From a virus (lineage: Duplodnaviria; Heunggongvirae; Uroviricota; Caudoviricetes): a DNA stretch of 37,546 bases. The DNA lies in the IMG/VR virus record IMGVR_UViG_2565956620_000003. The stretch is one strand, 5' to 3'. The number at the start of each line of letters is the position of its first letter. Position 1 is the stretch's first letter. This document shows, one piece after another, positions 2,856 to 11,707 of the stretch. The notes beneath the pieces were generated by a model. The model saw nothing but the letters and a program-made list of their open reading frames with translations, did not search any database and was not told the DNA's origin. The position numbers and the translations under genes are program-made.

Positions 2856-3046
2856 TGCGAGTCCTCCCTGTCAGGGCGGGAGAATTCCATGACGGGCACG
2901 TCTGCCGAAAAATGCTGGCTGCAGTACGGGCAGACCAGGGTGACGCGTACCGCAGGGATGTGGTATTTACCGGACATCACGGCGATGGCGCTGTGAAAAC
3001 GCAGGGCTGTTATATCCCTCTCGCACTGAATACATTTAAATATCAT
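2852..3046 (-). CDS. Small Cys-rich (zinc-ribbon-like) protein, hypothetical
   Basis: 64 aa with CIQCE ... CPYC spacing suggestive of a zinc ribbon. Confidence 0.45.
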   Translation of the reverse strand: MIFKCIQCERDITALRFHSAIAVMSGKYHIPAVRVTLVCPYCSQHFSADVPVMEFSRPDREDSQ

Positions 3047-3143
3047 GATTTAATTCTCCTCTGTTTCCGGCGTGCAGAAGCCCGCGGCGCTGACGTCGGA
3101 ATAAAAAAGAAAATGTTTTTATTAAATAATTAACGTGGTGTGT

Positions 3144-3674
3144 TTACTGCACATCCTGCTCAAAAGGAATTATTGAAAAATCCTCAATGTCGCTTTTAAT
3201 GGAAATACCGGGAATATTTTTCACGGCCTCTTTTTCATTCAGGATAGCGTCTTTATTTATTTCCTCTTTTACACGAATAAAGCGCTCAAGCCCCAGACGT
3301 CTCAGTAATTCAATAACATTATCCGCCCCACGGATACTGACTGATGGCGGACGGTTTCGCCACTGCACCTCGCCGGTGGTGAGGTTAGCGAACTTCACCT
3401 TCCCGTTGCCGGTCAGTTCATCACGGTGTGCCTCACACCATGTCTGAATACCGGACTGCAGTTCGGCCATGCGTTTTTTCAGGCTCTCGGTGAGCGGGGC
3501 ATAACGTGCGGTGATATCGCCAATGGCGTCATTCATTTCTGTTTCAGCCCTGACCAGTTCACGTTGTGCGTCACCGAGTAGTCTGATTCCCTCAATGACC
3601 TCTTCACGTGTCCCCGGCACCCAGAGTGCTGCTGCGGCCTTGATACGTTTTGCACCTTTTGTACTTTTTGCCAT
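3144..3674 (-). CDS. gam: Gam host-nuclease inhibitor (DNA-end-binding, Ku-like)
   Basis: 176 aa; near-collinear similarity to Mu Gam as recalled (AKRIK.AAA..VP, ETEMNDAI, WCEA.RDELT..GKVK.ANL.TG.V.WR.RPPSVSIRG, LGL.RFIR.K.EINK.AIL, SIKSDIEDFSIIPFEQ). Confidence 0.9.
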   Translation of the reverse strand: MAKSTKGAKRIKAAAALWVPGTREEVIEGIRLLGDAQRELVRAETEMNDAIGDITARYAPLTESLKKRMAELQSGIQTWCEAHRDELTGNGKVKFANLTTGEVQWRNRPPSVSIRGADNVIELLRRLGLERFIRVKEEINKDAILNEKEAVKNIPGISIKSDIEDFSIIPFEQDVQ

Positions 3675-3973: not shown

Positions 3974-5179
3974 TTAAACCCCTTTGACAACGTCAGCGTT
4001 GACCTGTGGAACCCCGATTTCAGCGGCCAGATTCATGGCGGCTATTACCAGGTTACTGACGGCCAGCGGATACAGCAGGCTGACCATATTTTTACGGTGA
4101 CTTCCCGGATTGCTCAGGCGGGCACGTATGGCATCCACTGCACCGGCGTCCATAATGTCCGTCAGCTGTTTACCGGCCCGTTGCAGTTTGAACGTCAGAA
4201 ATTCTTCAAGGTTATTGTCCAGAGGCAGAAGTTCGACCACCTCACAGCGCTGAACGACTTCACGGACTTCCATATTGCGTTCAGACAGTTTTGTCGCCAG
4301 TTCCGGCTGGCCAATCAGCACGATGGACAGCAGTTTTTTGAAACCGGACTCCAGCTCAAAAAAGCGTTTGAGGTGTTTCAGTGTCGGAATGGGCAGACTG
4401 TGGGCCTCCTCAATCACCAGAACGTGGCTGAACCCCGCCTGGCTGCTGTCTTTCAGGACGCGATGCAACTGGCGAAAACGGGCGTCCTGACTGCGTCTGA
4501 TGCTTTCCAGTGGTGCGATGGTACTGATAATGGCTTCGGCAATAGCTGCTGCCTTCAGGGTTTTCCCTTTCACATCGTTGTCTTCCATAGCGATGATGTA
4601 TGGCTCGATAACAATTACCGGCGCATTCTCGCGGTTGATACGTTCAGTCAGGTCGCGGCGCAGCGTGGATTTACCCGCACCGGACTCACCGATGACGGCC
4701 ATAAACCCACCATGACGGGCTGTCTGGTACAGCGCCTCACGCACGTAGCGAATGTCCGGGGTGGTGAACACATCATCAGAACCCTGCATGGCTTCGTCGG
4801 CGAACGGGTCACGGAAAAGACCAAACGCTTTTTTGGTTGCTGGAAATAACACCTGTTTTTTGAGTAACATATTCTCTTCCTCACTGAGGCTCGTTTTATC
4901 TGTGGTACCCGCTGTACGGGGCGTGGCCGCGCCCTGTACAGCATCAAAACTCTTCGTTGTATCAATCCCCTGACTTTCCAGCCAGGACGCAAGACGCCGG
5001 CGCACTTCTCCGGGGCTGGTGCGGGGCCACGCGTTATGATTCACAATCTGGGCCAGCGTGGCCTCAGAAACATCGACAGCTCTCGCCACCACCGCCTGTG
5101 GAATACGGGCCTCTTTCAGTTGCTGCTTCAGTACCAGCATGTTTCCCTCCTCAGTTGCCGTTAACAATGCTGATAACAC
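3974..5179 (-). CDS. Transposition ATPase (MuB/TniB-like AAA+ protein)
   Basis: 401 aa; Walker A GESGAGKST; N-terminal HTH-like segment; lies immediately downstream of, and overlaps, the transposase gene as for Mu B. Confidence 0.85.
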   Translation of the reverse strand: MLSALLTATEEGNMLVLKQQLKEARIPQAVVARAVDVSEATLAQIVNHNAWPRTSPGEVRRRLASWLESQGIDTTKSFDAVQGAATPRTAGTTDKTSLSEEENMLLKKQVLFPATKKAFGLFRDPFADEAMQGSDDVFTTPDIRYVREALYQTARHGGFMAVIGESGAGKSTLRRDLTERINRENAPVIVIEPYIIAMEDNDVKGKTLKAAAIAEAIISTIAPLESIRRSQDARFRQLHRVLKDSSQAGFSHVLVIEEAHSLPIPTLKHLKRFFELESGFKKLLSIVLIGQPELATKLSERNMEVREVVQRCEVVELLPLDNNLEEFLTFKLQRAGKQLTDIMDAGAVDAIRARLSNPGSHRKNMVSLLYPLAVSNLVIAAMNLAAEIGVPQVNADVVKGV

Positions 5180-6920
5180 TGCTGCGGGCCGGTGTGGTCA
5201 GCGTGGCCATGACTTCATCCAGTGCGGCTTCCGGTACGCCGTCCGGGTACTGTGCCGTTAACTGGCGGTAATGTTCCGGCGTCCAGGTAAGGCCGTCGGC
5301 GCTGAACTTATCGCGCAGGGCTTTCGCGGCCTCCACATGAGTCATGGGACGTTGTTCAGTGCGCGGCCCGCGTACGTCAGAGGCCTGACCACGCTTCGGC
5401 ATATAGGCCGGAAGTGTGGTGTCGTCGATATGTTTATACGGGTCAAGCCGCCCGCCGAACGGCAGCGCCTTCGCCTTGCGTGCGGCGGCTGCATCTGCGG
5501 CGTTGTCTGTACCGGTAACCAGCGCTTCGGTTTCTTTTGCCGCCATCTGTGCCGGGGTTTCCGGCAGGGCTTTGTAACTTTCGCCAAATACCGCCGCGCC
5601 TTCAGCAAAGCCAAACTCGTTCTTTCTGACCTCTTCGACCAGGAAGAACGTCTCGTGGCCGTCCTCACCGGTCAGAACCACCTGTGCCACATCGCTGCGC
5701 CATGGGTTACGGGTAATCATCAGTTTTTCACCAACCAGTACGCCCGGTACCGTTGATACGTCAAATTCAGTGCCCCGGAACGAGACACGAAGTTTTGGCG
5801 TGACTTTGCGGAGTTCTGGTGCCGCCACAGCCAGTTCACGACATACCTCAACGGAAGGCGCTTTTTTCAGCTGCTCAGCAGTAATCTTCAGCCAGATATC
5901 CGTGCGGGTTTTACCGTGGCGGCTGTGAACAGCCGTGGCGTTAAAGTGGCTGCGCCATTTCGCGGCCAGCGCGTTGAGTTCTTCCAGACTGTGAACCGGC
6001 CGGAACTTCAGACCCGGCTCCAGCTTGCGTTCGATAATGTCACGCGCCTTTTCCACCTGTCCGGTGGCGCGGGCGTTATGCGGCTTGTGCGCTATCAGGT
6101 CGATGCCCAGTGAGCGGCACATGTTTTTCGTCATACCCGCGGTGTTTGCCGAGCCGGGGTCGAGATAGAGTATTTTCGGCACGCCGTGCAGCACGTCTGC
6201 GCCGCCACGCTCCTGCATGGCGTTGATAAGCACAGAACACAGGTTCTCACCTGATTCCGCGCCCGTCACATACTCAACGTAAATCCAGCCGCTGGCATGG
6301 TCGGTAATCTCGTAACTCCACACGCGGTCACTGGCGATACGGGCAAGGTTAGCGGGCTTGTTCTTGTAGAACTTCGCGCTGTCCATCACCTGCAGCCCTT
6401 TATGTCCATTGCTCAGGTAGTAAAGCGTGCAGAGTGAGGCGTCAATCTGCCAGACATGATTGGGATGCAGACTGGCCACTTCGGTATGTGGTGCAGGGGC
6501 ATCCAGTTGTTCCGGGTGCAGGCCATAGTTACGCAGAGCACGGCTGATGGCATCTTCAGACAACGGGAAAAACTCACTGGTGGTTTCATCTGTTCTGCCT
6601 GCGGTGATAAAGCCGTTAGCCCGCAGGGTTTCCACTGCATCTGCGATGGAATAGAGACGCTTACCGTTCTTGCGGGTGGCCTCACGCAGTGTGGCAGATA
6701 TCAGCGCGGCTTCGTCGCGGGTCAGGGCGCTGCGCCCGGCATCGGCGCGTTTTTTGCGTTTATCAGTCACAGATACCTCCTTCAGCCTGCGCAGCAGAGT
6801 GGCGCGGGACATGCCAAGTTCAGCACAGGCAGCGTCGTATATTGCACCGCGTTTACCATGCCCCGCGTCACGTGCCGCGCGGGCTGTTTCAACCAGTTTT
6901 TCAGTCAGTGCCGGGGTCAT
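5151..6920 (-). CDS. DDE transposase (rve/integrase-core type, BcepMu TnpA-like, not MuA-like)
   Basis: 589 aa; N-terminal HTH (GMSRATLLRRLKEV); integrase-core-like motifs (HPNHVWQIDASL, ILYLDPGSANT); sits between early regulators and the MuB-like ATPase. Confidence 0.85.
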   Translation of the reverse strand: MTPALTEKLVETARAARDAGHGKRGAIYDAACAELGMSRATLLRRLKEVSVTDKRKKRADAGRSALTRDEAALISATLREATRKNGKRLYSIADAVETLRANGFITAGRTDETTSEFFPLSEDAISRALRNYGLHPEQLDAPAPHTEVASLHPNHVWQIDASLCTLYYLSNGHKGLQVMDSAKFYKNKPANLARIASDRVWSYEITDHASGWIYVEYVTGAESGENLCSVLINAMQERGGADVLHGVPKILYLDPGSANTAGMTKNMCRSLGIDLIAHKPHNARATGQVEKARDIIERKLEPGLKFRPVHSLEELNALAAKWRSHFNATAVHSRHGKTRTDIWLKITAEQLKKAPSVEVCRELAVAAPELRKVTPKLRVSFRGTEFDVSTVPGVLVGEKLMITRNPWRSDVAQVVLTGEDGHETFFLVEEVRKNEFGFAEGAAVFGESYKALPETPAQMAAKETEALVTGTDNAADAAAARKAKALPFGGRLDPYKHIDDTTLPAYMPKRGQASDVRGPRTEQRPMTHVEAAKALRDKFSADGLTWTPEHYRQLTAQYPDGVPEAALDEVMATLTTPARSSVISIVNGN

Positions 6921-6935: not shown

Positions 6936-7253
6936 TTATCCGATTCTGGCGGCAATTTTTCTGGCGAGGTCGCACAGTGTTTCGCCATCGCAGGTTTTCA
7001 CCACGGTATTTACCGGTTGCGGTGCAACTACCGGGCGTAATGCTGACTGATTCTGCAGACGTCTTATCTGCTGCATCAGCATCACCTCCATCGTCAGTAC
7101 AAACGGGTGCGTCTCCTGTGCGGGTACGCAGATTTCACCGGAAGGGGTCACCACGCGGAAACCCTGCACCATCTCCGGCAGCAGATTACACAGTGCGTGC
7201 CCCAGTGCCTCCGGGCTGTCCATCAGGGTATTTTGTGTGTTATTCGTATTCAT
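6936..7253 (-). CDS. Hypothetical early protein (105 aa)
   Basis: ORF in operon; start shares a base with the upstream stop at 7253. Confidence 0.5.
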   Translation of the reverse strand: MNTNNTQNTLMDSPEALGHALCNLLPEMVQGFRVVTPSGEICVPAQETHPFVLTMEVMLMQQIRRLQNQSALRPVVAPQPVNTVVKTCDGETLCDLARKIAARIG

Positions 7254-8173
7254 TACTGCATATCCTCCGGTCGGTTGATTTCAGGTTCCGGTTCGGTCAG
7301 CCAGGCGGGGGCATCGTTACCCGATGGAGCGGCCTCAAGGTCAAACGTCTCACGTAATGCATGAACACTGCGTTCAATCTGGCAGACCAGACCGGCCATG
7401 AAATCTCTGGGGGTATCGATCATGTTTTTGGTGCAGTATTCACACAGGGTCTCAAAAACACTGGACAGCCGGACGGCGATAGCCGATTCGGCCTCAACCG
7501 CTAATGCCGTCACTTCCGCCCGCAATTTTTTCAGTTCTTCGTCTGGCGGCGGAGGTTGCAGGCGCGATTTCTTCTCCAGTTTTGTGGCCAGTTCGTTGAT
7601 TTTTTCGTCCTTTCCGGCAAGCACCTGTTGCTGAGCTGCGTTGGTTTCGCGCGCTTCACGCAGGGCGGCCTTCAGTTCGCGGCTGGTCATGCGATCAATA
7701 TCATCAAGCGTTGCACCGGCGACGGTTCCACCATCAGCTAATGCGTCGAGTTCTTCGTCATCCAGAACCATCAGTTCATATAACTTGGTTTTTCCCAAAA
7801 CGCTCAGCGCTGAGCGTTTTGGCTGTTCATCTCCATTGCCGAGAAATTTCACGCTGGCCTGCATCATGCGACGAGCTACCTGTGGTGCTAATCCGAGGTC
7901 GTTTTCCAGAATATTTGTGAAATCACCATGCGGTTCATTTTCTTTTAAGATGATCAGCCGCTTACCCGCTTCCAACATAGATTCAGCACTCTGCGCCATA
8001 TAAAAACGTGCTTCGTGAACGATGCGTTCACGTTCATAAGGCAGTCCATCACCAAACTGCTGCATGATCTCCATGCGATGCTGTGTCATGGCATTCAGGC
8101 TGACGTTGAGATCATCCGACAGCGGTACATCGGCGTTCAGTTCAGTGTTAATCGGTGATTTGGTACGTCCCAT
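7253..8173 (-). CDS. Hypothetical early protein with coiled-coil C-terminal half
   Basis: 306 aa; the charged C-terminal half looks coiled-coil; a protein of this kind is common in Mu-like early regions (possibly a DUF3102-type protein, family assignment from memory only). Confidence 0.55.
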   Translation of the reverse strand: MGRTKSPINTELNADVPLSDDLNVSLNAMTQHRMEIMQQFGDGLPYERERIVHEARFYMAQSAESMLEAGKRLIILKENEPHGDFTNILENDLGLAPQVARRMMQASVKFLGNGDEQPKRSALSVLGKTKLYELMVLDDEELDALADGGTVAGATLDDIDRMTSRELKAALREARETNAAQQQVLAGKDEKINELATKLEKKSRLQPPPPDEELKKLRAEVTALAVEAESAIAVRLSSVFETLCEYCTKNMIDTPRDFMAGLVCQIERSVHALRETFDLEAAPSGNDAPAWLTEPEPEINRPEDMQ

Positions 8174-8544: not shown

Positions 8545-8733
8545 TTAGGCCGCCTGAGCTGTTGATTTCAGTCCCAACTTCACGGCGATTTCATGGGATT
8601 TACCGTAACGGGCTTTGGTCTGCCCGTTGAGAACGCGGTATACCTCATTGCGGTTGTAGCCGTTTTCTTCTGCCCAGCGGGTGAAAGTGATCCCGCGCTG
8701 GCGGAAGAGAGCTTTGACTTGTTCTGCAGTCAT
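8545..8733 (-). CDS. Ner-like (Cro-like) early transcriptional regulator
   Basis: 62 aa; spacing pattern V.A....RG.T......E.GY........L.G.....G..IA..LG matches the Mu Ner / Nlp family; first gene of the leftward early operon, divergent from the repressor. Confidence 0.7.
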   Translation of the reverse strand: MTAEQVKALFRQRGITFTRWAEENGYNRNEVYRVLNGQTKARYGKSHEIAVKLGLKSTAQAA

Positions 8734-8826
8734 CGTTGTCTCCTTTGTTGATGCAATGATGTTTGCCTTATATGTGTTAGATTATTGCTCATAATTATGA
8801 GCATATCAAGATAGAGATTCACTTTT
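8734..8826. promoter_or_regulatory. Divergent early/repressor control region with operator-like palindromes
   Basis: Perfect 18-bp palindrome TGCTCATAATTATGAGCA at 8786-8803; the half-site TTATGAGCA recurs at 8825-8833, overlapping the repressor start codon; AT-rich spacer between divergent genes. Confidence 0.6.
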
Positions 8827-9183
8827 ATGAGCAAAGATATAGGAGAGCGCGTTATTTCTGTGAGGAAGAAAGCAGGGTTGAACCAGAGAGAATTTGCAGC
8901 TCGTTTAGGTATTTCTAATGGTGGTATCAGTCAGATTGAAAATGGAAAGGCGATGCCTGGAGGGGAGTTTCTGTTAAAGATGCATCAAGAGTTTAATGTT
9001 GATGTAAATTGGTTGCTCACTGGAATGAGCACAGATGGTATGACTAGAAACCAGAATCAAATTTCCCCAGAAAAACAAAAACTAATAGATACTTTTGACG
9101 ACATGACACCAGACCAACAACGCTCATTTCTTGAGATTGGGCGATTCTATACTCAGCCAAAACCAGGAAAAATCGCAGGCTGA
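8827..9183 (+). CDS. XRE-family HTH repressor (prophage maintenance repressor candidate)
   Basis: 118 aa; classic Cro/C1-type HTH (LNQREFAARLGISNGGISQIENGK); divergent from the Ner-like gene. Confidence 0.8.
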   Translation: MSKDIGERVISVRKKAGLNQREFAARLGISNGGISQIENGKAMPGGEFLLKMHQEFNVDVNWLLTGMSTDGMTRNQNQISPEKQKLIDTFDDMTPDQQRSFLEIGRFYTQPKPGKIAG

Positions 9184-9269
9184 TACTGACCCGGACACAA
9201 AGGACAGGTGGTTGATCTGGATGCTTTCAGAAAACATCGCCAGTGACATAGTGGAAGTTGTTTGGTTTA

Positions 9270-9300
9270 CCGGAAAGCATTGTGCTTTCCGGTTTTGTTT
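9270..9300 (+). terminator. Rho-independent terminator after the repressor gene
   Basis: 9-bp perfect stem CCGGAAAGC / GCTTTCCGG with loop ATTGT, followed by TTTTGTTT; sits between the convergent repressor and methyltransferase genes. Confidence 0.6.
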
Positions 9301-10064
9301 CAGAAGTTGCAGATTAGCAGTTCACGGCGCGGCGTGGGTTTACCCGCCAGACTGTAGTTGATATTCACTGTCTGTATGTTCAGTCCAGTGAACACCTCGC
9401 GCATCTGCGGGATGTCGTTCACCGAAATTATCATTTTTCCTCTGATGCACCGGGCCAGCTCTGCCAGCCGCGAGTAGTTCCCTTCAGGAAAATCCACACC
9501 ATAGCCTTCCGTACCCAGGTACGGTGGGTCGCAGTAGAACAGCGTGTGCGGACGATCATAACGCTCAATGCACTGTTGCCAGTCCATGTGTTCTATGACT
9601 GTTCTGGAAAGCCGCAGGTGTGCCGCTGACAGTTCTTCTTCAATACGTAGCAGGTTGAAGCGTGGCGGGGATGTGGTGGAGGTACCGAAGCTGTGCTCTG
9701 CCACCTTGCCGCCAAACGCCTGCTTCTGAAGGTAGTAGAACCGTGCCGCACGCTGGATATCCGTCAGTGTTTCTTCCGGGGTGATCTGCAGCCATTTGTA
9801 GATCTGACGGCTGACCAGCGCCCATTTGAACTGGCGGACAAATTCTTCCAGGTGATGCTTTACCACCCGGTACAGATTCACCAGTTCACCGTTGATATCA
9901 TTGATGACTTCGATCTTGCCGGGTGTCTTAAGAAAATAGAGCGCTGCTGCCCCACAAAACGGCTCCACATAACATTCATGCGCCGGAAACAGCGGCAGAA
10001 TGTGTTTTGCAAGGCGGCGTTTGCCACCAATCCACGGCACGATGGGTAATGTCTGCATTTTCAT
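9300..10064 (-). CDS. Dam-family N6-adenine DNA methyltransferase (orphan)
   Basis: N-terminal PWIGGKRRLAKHILPLFP motif and catalytic DPPY motif (FYCDPPYLGTEGYG). Start placed at ATG 10064 (MKMQTLPIVPW); the track ORF extends to 10154 without support. No adjacent restriction endonuclease gene. Confidence 0.85.
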   Translation of the reverse strand: MKMQTLPIVPWIGGKRRLAKHILPLFPAHECYVEPFCGAAALYFLKTPGKIEVINDINGELVNLYRVVKHHLEEFVRQFKWALVSRQIYKWLQITPEETLTDIQRAARFYYLQKQAFGGKVAEHSFGTSTTSPPRFNLLRIEEELSAAHLRLSRTVIEHMDWQQCIERYDRPHTLFYCDPPYLGTEGYGVDFPEGNYSRLAELARCIRGKMIISVNDIPQMREVFTGLNIQTVNINYSLAGKPTPRRELLICNF

Positions 10065-10254
10065 AATCTGCAAGCCTTTTACAATTATTAAAAAATATGG
10101 CAGTCTGGTCAGGTCTCGCGAGACTGACTGAACCTTGGTCGGCTCACAGCGCATTCCTGTGGGGCGATGACCAGCCCGGCTTTCGGGTGCCGGGCTGGTC
10201 GTTCTTTCATGATGCGGCAGGGATGGCGGGATTTCTGTTAATGTGGTTTAGGGA

Positions 10255-10470
10255 TTATCCGGGGCGATTTTCTGACCTTATCCGGTCCAGGGCATAAGTA
10301 ATACCTTCTGCAAAAACAGAAGTATCAAACTGCTTTTGTATTCCCTGAAAATGAAAAGCGGCACGACAGACACTCAGTTCTCCGCGGTATAACCGGATAA
10401 TATCTTCCAGAACATTGTTCACTGCTTCAGCACGGCGCTGATGTTCTGTTAACGTTAATCGGGGATTCAT
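10255..10470 (-). CDS. Hypothetical protein (71 aa)
   Basis: Strong ribosome-binding site AAGGAG 6 nt upstream of the ATG on the minus strand. Confidence 0.5.
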   Translation of the reverse strand: MNPRLTLTEHQRRAEAVNNVLEDIIRLYRGELSVCRAAFHFQGIQKQFDTSVFAEGITYALDRIRSENRPG

Positions 10471-11577: not shown

Positions 11578-11707
11578 ATCGTATTCTCCTCTGTGAATAA
11601 TTCATCGTTTATCCTGCACATCCCGTATCCCCGGCTCTCTTAACGCGCTTTAAAATCCTTCGCGCCCTGTATTTGTGATGCTGTCTCCACCAGATAAGGA
11701 GACACAC

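Follow-up and report, generated by a model that had tools for sequence, protein, structure and literature searches.

In IS10/Tn10, an antisense pair, RNA-OUT and RNA-IN, operates together with fold-back inhibition of read-through transposase transcripts. In phage Mu, com-mom comprises a late accessory modification gene whose ribosome-binding site is hidden in messenger RNA (mRNA) structure and which depends on a dedicated activator, and divergent overlapping promoters are located at mom. To our knowledge, few accessory genes are commoner in temperate phages than those for orphan Dam-like methyltransferases; in lysogens most of these are silent, and as far as we know nobody can say how. Furthermore, the antisense RNA ctRNA_pGA1 of the Corynebacterium plasmid pGA1 overlaps the start and the promoter of rep and lowers the Rep level (PMC9592669). 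This report is focused on the 190 bp (10065-10254) upstream of an orphan dam gene in a stretch of 37,546 nucleotides from a Caudoviricetes virus (IMG/VR record IMGVR_UViG_2565956620_000003), which is analyzed at its full length and referred to as the window. A first-pass annotation had noted a palindrome and a hairpin in these 190 bp. All structural claims made here rest on comparative sequence analysis, according to which the palindrome and the hairpin are parts of a predicted, unannotated sense/antisense RNA control module that is undescribed as far as could be found.

The central component of the module is a predicted plus-strand countertranscript of ~105-120 nt (10092..10209), recognized from a conserved block with three covarying hairpins, with its 5′ end placed at ~10092-10104 and its 3′ end in a U-rich tail. 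Because the last hairpin and this tail are terminator-shaped, such a countertranscript would have to begin somewhere between the start codon of dam and 10105 and to stop close to 10209. Briefly, the 5′ hairpin HP1 (10107..10129) comprises an outer helix (10107-10110/10126-10129) and an inner helix (10113-10116/10121-10124) with the loop CGCG, and its apex is the palindrome (10113-10124); HP2 (10143..10163) consists of CUCACAG, a 7-nt loop, and CUGUGGG; and HP3 (10169..10209), the hairpin of the first-pass annotation, has a G+C-rich stem of 12 bp (10169-10180/10189-10200), an 8-nt loop, and the tail GUUCUUUCA, all on the plus strand. The arrangement is similar to that of ctRNA_pGA1, which is likewise a short antisense RNA directed away from the gene, with a promoter at the gene 5′ end, two G+C-rich hairpins, and a U-rich tail. 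By contrast, the phage element has the extra 5′ hairpin HP1 and would control a methyltransferase or com-dam instead of plasmid rep. GC-rich relatives of the element match RF00236 (ctRNA_pGA1) over HP2, HP3, and the tail, at 45.1 bits in L150 (gathering score 45), 44.9 in L139, 44.4 in L154, and 27-36 bits in others, and are linked to the window element through the covariance model R1 described below. We treat ctRNA_pGA1 as the closest known kind, in a relation that could be either homology or convergent architecture; among the papers searched, none connects ctRNA_pGA1 with phages or includes the sequence of the element.

The likeness to IS10 would consist of opposed promoters at the gene 5′ end, an antisense RNA folded into a stable stem-loop, pairing of the ribosome-binding site with a sequence upstream of it, and outside transcripts that remain untranslated. 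However, RNA-OUT overlaps the ribosome-binding site of RNA-IN, whereas the start predicted for the phage countertranscript is at least 28 nt upstream of the AUG and the overlap is with long leaders only, and the IS10 RNAs have no sequence relationship to the phage element. The first-pass annotation had compared the gene with Mu mom in its accessory position and tight control, and this comparison proved apt, given that the identical gene in Escherichia coli EC958 is silent in reverse transcription PCR (RT-PCR) and that a Com-like gene stands before dam in distant relatives. In B3 and in IMG/VR loci, the Com-like zinc-finger open reading frame (ORF) directly precedes dam, as in com-mom. Unlike Mu, the window is without com, the enzyme is of the Dam family and not Mom, and no C-type site is evident at the palindrome; a search for a Com-like gene in 10065-10254 yielded no Cys-rich ORF, and the 33-codon minus-strand ORF located there is broken by indels in relatives.

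Support for the plus-strand RNA was obtained from two alignments: A3, a MAFFT alignment of 47 distinct close relatives that was not fitted to any model, and A5, comprising 60 sequences fitted to a covariance model. In A3, four HP3 pairs show changes on both sides, G·U cells number 41 on the plus strand vs. 1 on the minus strand, and all one-sided changes except one retain a plus-strand G·U pair, while 9 of the 12 pairs covary in A5. The tail GUUCUUUCA is invariant among close relatives and U/C-rich in all relatives, and we read HP3 with its tail as the putative intrinsic terminator of the countertranscript. The arms CAGCCCGGC/GCCGGGCTG are present at 10172-10180/10189-10197, as first annotated, although the 9-bp stem assigned to them is part of the longer perfect stem of 12 bp. 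The hairpin does not belong to the dam strand, as its wobble pairs fit only the opposite strand and its form is terminator-like for the countertranscript. The 7-bp stem of HP2 is invariant among close relatives around a hypervariable loop of 6 or 7 nt, and distant relatives show compensatory changes (CGCAG/CUGCG, CACUG/CAGUG, CACGG/CCGUG); its U·G at 10144-10162 pairs on the plus strand only. All eight pairs of HP1 change on both sides in the wider alignment, and the internal-loop positions 10111-10112 vary freely among close relatives. The palindrome GTCTCGCGAGAC, found where the first-pass annotation had placed it, has undergone three substitutions in close relatives, each either in the central CGCG or from U-A to U·G, and the replacement apices of other relatives (GTTCTCGAGAAC, GTCATCGATGAC, GCCTCGCGAGGC, and CGTCGACG- or GTGCAC-centred) are accompanied by changes in the outer stem.

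Over the whole of A5, two-sided changes are seen in 20 of 27 pairs (161 cells), the covariation score amounts to 0.391 vs. 0.149 for column shuffles (reached by 0 of 500) and ≤0.093 for slid partners, and G·U cells outnumber A·C cells by 140 to 26. Strand-specific pairing and covariation, the marks of a cis-encoded antisense RNA, are both observed, the former in the 41 vs. 1 G·U cells of A3 and the latter in these 20 pairs. The plus-strand RNA has a minimum free energy of -57.5 kcal/mol (z -4.4); thermodynamic stability was rejected as a strand criterion, being uninformative with both strands at z ~-4.5. Frequency in the window distinguishes the two features unequally. Perfect 12-bp palindromes number 7 vs. 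10.2 ± 3.1 in Markov shuffles, so that the palindrome, with its motif in a single copy, is not unusual alone, and hairpins with a 12-bp stem number 2 vs. 0.01 expected. The significance of the palindrome and hairpin comes from their conservation and covariation in the relatives compared.

A second structure, on the opposite strand of the same DNA, was noticed by folding the dam-sense leaders of relatives. Its 5′ partner, segment X (CUGUGAGCC; 10149..10141, minus strand), comprises the 3′ arm of the sense-strand copy of HP2 together with GCC, and its 3′ partner, segment Y (GGCUUGCAG; 10076..10068, minus strand), comprises the GG of the Shine-Dalgarno sequence AAGG (10078..10075) together with the spacer and stops 3 nt short of the AUG. 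The energy of the X-Y duplex is ~-14 to -15 kcal/mol. The helix covaries with both HP2 arms, for example in the relatives L121, L093, and L134, and it tracks the first start codon of the operon, be it that of com or dam, and covers the com AUG where com exists. X and Y read CUGUGAGCC / GGCUUACAG in most Enterobacterales, CUGCGAGCC / GGUUUGCAG in L121, CUGCAAGUC / GGCUUGCAG in L093, CCGUGAGCC / GGCUCACG in L134, CUGCAAG / CUUGCAG in the com-first locus L120 (L107 has CUGCAGG as X), and UGUGAGCC / GGCUCACA, overlapping the com AUG, in L151 and L155. Ranked against every 40-nt window of its locus, the true X-Y site falls in approximately the top 1% for most of 39 distinct loci and comes first in 17 of them; the few exceptions have either a mutated X or an extended register. 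The helix forms part of the minimum-energy leader fold in KP12, L084, L121, L095, phiE125, KS9, and vB_HM795, and in B3 via the other HP2 arm. It accounts for the sequence CTGTAAGCC beside the start codon, whose conservation greatly exceeds the needs of a Shine-Dalgarno sequence, and the covariation of the helix indirectly suggests that dam mRNAs extend upstream of 10149, through the predicted element. Dam-sense read-through transcripts can thereby, as judged from the pairing, form a conserved long-range helix in which the leading gene of the operon, dam here and com in some relatives, has its ribosome-binding site concealed.

The module is a discrete unit. Among relatives with ~80% identical dam, the mean identity to the window is 0.85 in the element (10088-10211), 0.80 in the dam coding sequence (CDS), and 0.54 in the next 120 bp. 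The conserved upstream stretch runs from just before the hairpin to the start codon, and homology of the element ends exactly past GTCGTTCTTTCA, at the U-rich tail. Copies were collected by two pattern scans with different anchors, which retrieved 56 viral contigs and 11 GTDB species representatives across Enterobacterales (Mixta, Erwinia, Buttiauxella, Trabulsiella, Limnobaculum, and others); the block is also present in 556 of 5426 complete E. coli genomes and annotated in none. A full dam stands beside the element in 63 of 73 loci, dam is cut by the locus end in 4, only its first 23-31 codons remain in 5, and it is truncated in 1. In the BcepMu-like prophages L004 (E. coli 503440, 3001-3225), L005 (E. 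coli A24, 3001-3193), and L072, dam has been swapped for other cargo, namely extra plus-strand genes after the repressor, with the first 23-31 dam codons and an intact element retained and with at least two deletion end points. The viral contig L054 carries two copies of the element ~630 bp apart (4798-4921 and 5433-5556; 147 and 74.5 bits), its dam matches residues 1-212 only, and the first copy has a decayed Y segment next to it (TGTTTACAG); this contig may hold a tandem or recombinant dam module. A coding explanation of the block is excluded by frameshifting indels in the hairpin loops. The small minus-strand ORF from 10211 (MKERPAR...) is shifted out of frame by loop indels of +1, -1, and +3 and has ATG, TTG, GTG, or CTG as its first codon among relatives, and the plus-strand ORF 10097-10297 contains a stop codon in KP12.

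The wider family was defined with R1, which was built from the sequences of close relatives and scores 142 bits on the window, on the plus strand and in a single copy. R1 matches 39 of 70 viral loci with a Dam of 65-85% identity, on the strand opposite to dam and ending 20-25 nt before the start codon, and one more with filters off; the matches are always directly upstream of dam or com-dam on the opposite strand. They include VP882 (NC_009016, 20855-20979, complement; 59.7 bits), phiE125 (NC_003309, 22778-22894, complement), and B3 (NC_006548, 25725-25849, complement), as well as the region upstream of dam in vB_HM795, KS9, and TJ1; no R1 match was found upstream of com in phage Mu. Com-like zinc-finger ORFs are found in B3 and 12 IMG/VR relatives, and the order element, Com-like ORF, dam is observed in B3 and three IMG/VR loci. 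The annotated B3ORF45 and B3ORF46 (26-43 aa; L156 2264-2489) span the predicted RNA element on the dam-sense strand and are probably not genes, and VP882 gp36 likewise overlaps the element. In phiE125, KS9, vB_HM795, VP882, B3, and PseuP_222, the module is located downstream of late genes in the same orientation, so that read-through late transcripts would carry the leader.

On these grounds, we propose, with about an even chance of being right, that the 190 bp provide RNA-level sense/antisense control of Dam translation that travels with this phage dam clade. Long-leader dam mRNAs, which in most relatives would arise by read-through from upstream late genes, would be translationally silent by default through the X-Y fold-back. 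The countertranscript, fully complementary to the leader, would pair with it, probably leading to cleavage or decay, and promoter or collision interference may be added where its promoter overlaps the region of the dam ribosome-binding site and promoter. The expected outcome would be no Dam in the lysogen and limited Dam in lytic growth; the RT-PCR silence of dam in the EC958 lysogen is consistent with such a Dam-off state (PMC4659465). A consensus scan places overlapping divergent promoter-like elements in an AT-rich patch (10058..10103, both strands), namely the candidate countertranscript promoters TTTTCA-16-TACAAT (10058-10085) and AAAAAT (10091-10096) on the plus strand and a dam-sense extended -10 element TGcCATATT (10102..10094) on the minus strand. 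Among 53 distinct relatives, a plus-strand GAAAAT/AAAAAT is found 16 nt before HP1 in 39, and a dam-sense CATATT/TATTTT overlaps the plus-strand hexamer in 32-33. Two other assignments were rejected. HP1 is not a dam-sense attenuator, as the U-run sits 5-10 nt past the stem and is missing in VP882, and CTGTTAATGTGGTTTA (10235-10250) is not the dam promoter, as it is oriented like the holin-promoter motif, stands immediately before plus-strand late genes in relatives, and is separated from the element by a variable distance (25, 32, or 38 nt).

Several observations weigh against this proposal. The promoters and the 5′ ends of both RNAs are consensus predictions only, and a dam promoter inside the element (TGcCATATT), if used, would give an mRNA that lacks X and does not overlap the countertranscript. 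The X-Y helix is absent from the minimum-energy leader fold of the window itself and of VP882. A simple terminator scan did not flag HP3, whose U-tract is interrupted, and the window copy has no Rfam match, with no match to RF00236 even at E ≤ 10 in a 131-nt search. The fitting of A5 to its model favours structure, which leaves A3 as the cleaner test, and many aligned loci are near-identical relatives, so that the counts lean towards structure. Furthermore, the HP1 apex is fully symmetric through its centre in nearly all variants (CGCG, UCGA, UGCA, CCGG, CUAG, GGCC), which an RNA hairpin does not require. Finally, the antisense RNA is complementary to X, and its pairing would free the Shine-Dalgarno sequence, which argues for activation rather than repression and constitutes a serious alternative.

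According to that alternative, which we hold to be doubtful but which fares best among the rivals, the countertranscript would activate dam, either by pairing with X or through a leader cut by RNase III, and so free the sequestered site; it would be an RNA counterpart of Mu Com that caps or times the Dam made from late operons. X pairs with the Shine-Dalgarno segment and yet sits in the region complementary to the countertranscript, so that the two pairings are mutually exclusive, and the module offers no other candidate to open the fold-back. In com-bearing relatives, a fold-back over the com start would create a cascade. Activation by removal of an inhibitory fold is known from DsrA on rpoS and from RNase III processing of the lambda N leader. 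On the other hand, most structured cis-antisense RNAs that end in a terminator inhibit (plasmid countertranscripts, RNA-OUT, Sok, and Sar), and a constitutive activator would make the fold-back pointless and leave Dam not off in a lysogen without detected dam transcript. Judged from this base rate of structured cis-antisense RNAs, the antisense RNA is more likely to be inhibitory. If it is an activator after all, the module may be a portable activator-type switch that spread with orphan dam or com-dam among unrelated temperate phages of Gamma- and Betaproteobacteria and allows Dam only when late read-through meets the antisense RNA, a possibility that we regard with similar doubt.

The first-pass annotation had offered the palindrome as a candidate regulator-binding site, and in the corresponding rival reading it would be a DNA operator through which a dimeric regulator, a Mor/C-type activator or a repressor, acts on a dam promoter in the element, with the hairpin only as an insulator. 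The HP1 apex is dyad-symmetric in almost every variant, the palindrome covers the -35 region of the putative promoters for dam-sense transcription, and the phage has a gene for a Mor-family late activator (132-521); the mom promoter region of Mu likewise has overlapping divergent promoters, which are switched by C. Nevertheless, paired substitutions convert the palindrome into other palindromes across the unrelated BcepMu-like, B3-like, phiE125-like, and VP882 phages, which share the dam module but have different, unrelated regulators, the outer stem changes together with it and includes G·U pairs, and imperfect variants still pair via plus-strand G·U, all of which the tip of an RNA hairpin explains better. 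The palindrome is unlike both the operator-like palindrome at the repressor gene (8787-8802) and the late-promoter-like motif CTNTTAACGCGNTTTA upstream of the holin gene (11637-11652), is unique in the window, and was rejected as a copy of either; nothing similar to it was found at other promoter regions of the phage. Control through a C-box (GACT-N3-AGTC) was also rejected, given that the polarity here is AGTC...GACT and no C gene adjoins dam; the only helix-turn-helix (HTH) gene near dam occupies the position expected of the phage repressor. An operator is thus improbable overall, and it is the persistent symmetry of the apex, explained by no RNA model, that keeps a role of this kind alive at low probability.

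It is still less probable that the plus-strand RNA is a trans-acting prophage small RNA (sRNA), a "moron" acting on host or phage mRNAs via the linker GACUGACUGAACCYYGGUYGG, and that its adjacency to dam is incidental. The element is indeed intact in prophages that lost dam, the linker is invariant save for C/U changes, and VP882, which carries the element, uses Hfq-binding sRNAs (PMC12197685). However, even very divergent phages keep the element in a fixed position, distance, and orientation with respect to dam or com, X accounts for part of the linker conservation, the U-tail is short and interrupted for an Hfq type, and a target scan of the phage genome was unconvincing, with the best non-self duplex (-35.8 kcal/mol) inside the transposase ORF. 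Just as improbable is the notion that no functional RNA is made, that HP3 is a mere terminator keeping divergent transcription from the dam promoter region out of the neighbouring late genes, and that HP1 and HP2 are relevant only in the dam-sense leader. In its favour, a late-promoter-like motif lies 20-40 nt past the terminator in relatives, and the loop that X-Y closes contains both HP1 and HP2, which could have a role in the sense leader only. Against it, wobble pairing in HP2 and in the inner helix of HP1 favours the plus strand, stable antisense RNAs typically have three hairpins with a terminator, and the Rfam search scores relatives as a countertranscript.

The dam gene itself is already known and is unremarkable as an orphan phage Dam. 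It occupies 9300..10064 on the minus strand and encodes an orphan D12/Dam-family N6-adenine DNA methyltransferase of 254 aa (M.EcoMIV, EC958_1101), as identified from profile matches and RefSeq. The translation matches PF02086 (E 6e-29, 102 bits vs. a cut-off of 22, residues 11-234), TIGR00571 (116.6 bits, barely above the cut-off of 114.85), and phrog_56 (E 1.5e-100), and contains the catalytic DPPY (YCDPPYLG) and the S-adenosylmethionine-binding FxGxG-type (EPFCGAAAL) motifs, both of which align with those of E. coli Dam and DpnM, at ~25-30% overall identity to these enzymes. In E. coli Dam, the guanines of GATC are read by lysine K9 and arginine R124. A phmmer alignment to 2g1p (E. coli Dam) places Pro and Ala of the phage enzyme, respectively, opposite these residues, and the E. 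coli Dam equivalog model NF008152 failed with 67 bits vs. a cut-off of 441, so that GATC specificity cannot be assumed. The start codon at 10064-10062 gives 254 aa, and RefSeq has the same 765-bp CDS in EC958. A 284-aa Dam from 10154, which reads through the RNA element in the PhiKM record (GenBank PQ738613), was rejected, as the extension is disrupted in relatives by an indel of 1 nt and RefSeq starts at 10064. The first-pass annotation had described the gene as orphan and Dam-like, which the PF02086 and TIGR00571 matches and the lack of a restriction-enzyme match among its neighbours bear out: no nuclease was found among the neighbouring ORFs with Pfam and NCBIfam, and PHROGs gave unknown function, while the neighbours of dam vary among relatives with no conserved partner. 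M.EcoMIV has been described as a D12-class orphan enzyme on the prophage Phi2, with no recognition site known for homologues of >65% identity, no RT-PCR signal, predicted inactivity, and no methylation motif assigned in the EC958 lysogen (PMC4659465). The gene of that study is the same as the window dam, and the upstream RNA element is not described there (PMC4659465).

Compared over 37 kb, the whole window shares 99.99% identity with the prophage located between aroA and ycaL in E. coli ST131 EC958, which is Phi2 of Forde et al. 2015 (PMC4659465); it is a BcepMu-like transposable phage, and the dam region is 100% identical to that of Escherichia phage PhiKM (Bcepmuvirus). The leftward early genes encode a Ner-like protein (8545-8733), transposase, Gam, and the Mor-family late activator (132-521); the lysis and structural genes begin at ~11708, and dam lies in a variable accessory region from the repressor to the holin gene. 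As first annotated, dam is convergent with a rightward repressor-like HTH_3 gene (8827-9183). The two are separated by a bidirectional terminator-like hairpin (9269..9293, both strands), an 11-pair stem followed by TTTGTTTC on the plus strand, which was also recovered in a search for stems of ≥9 bp. The divergent region that separates the Ner-like and repressor-like genes contains GCTCATAATTATGAGC (8787-8802), a perfect palindrome of 16 bp that is likely the immunity-switch operator. The motif CTNTTAACGCGNTTTA, a TTAA-N6-TTAA-like dyad, is found on the plus strand at 10235-10250, just past the element terminator, and at 11637-11652, ~55 nt before the holin start; the relatives L087 and L088 have the version CTCTTAACGCCCTTTAAAAT directly after the element terminator, and motifs of this type are candidate binding sites of a Mor/C-type late activator at rightward late promoters. 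The sole other hairpin in the window as strong as that upstream of dam (0.01 expected by chance) is a 28-bp near-perfect palindrome (stem of at least 12 bp, 4-nt loop) at 7795-7822, within a DUF3102 gene (7253-8173, minus strand). Inverted repeats of ~214 bp (34250-34463/36083-36296) bracket the tail-fibre region, and the window diverges from EC958 past 37013, with a recombinase annotated adjacent in EC958; the region looks like an invertible host-range segment similar to the Mu G segment, here in the other orientation than in EC958.

M.EcoMIV, carried by the pandemic ST131 clone, is an example of a silent orphan Dam, and the RNA module offers a concrete, testable silencing mechanism for the whole clade. 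The predicted RNA would be an unannotated gene in ~10% of complete E. coli genomes. The model phages VP882, B3, and phiE125 carry the module, and transcriptome data exist for VP882, so that a quick check is possible. More broadly, as far as comparison among relatives can indicate, the module appears to be a natural case in which both strands of one DNA segment are under selection, each for its own RNA structure, and the two structures overlap.

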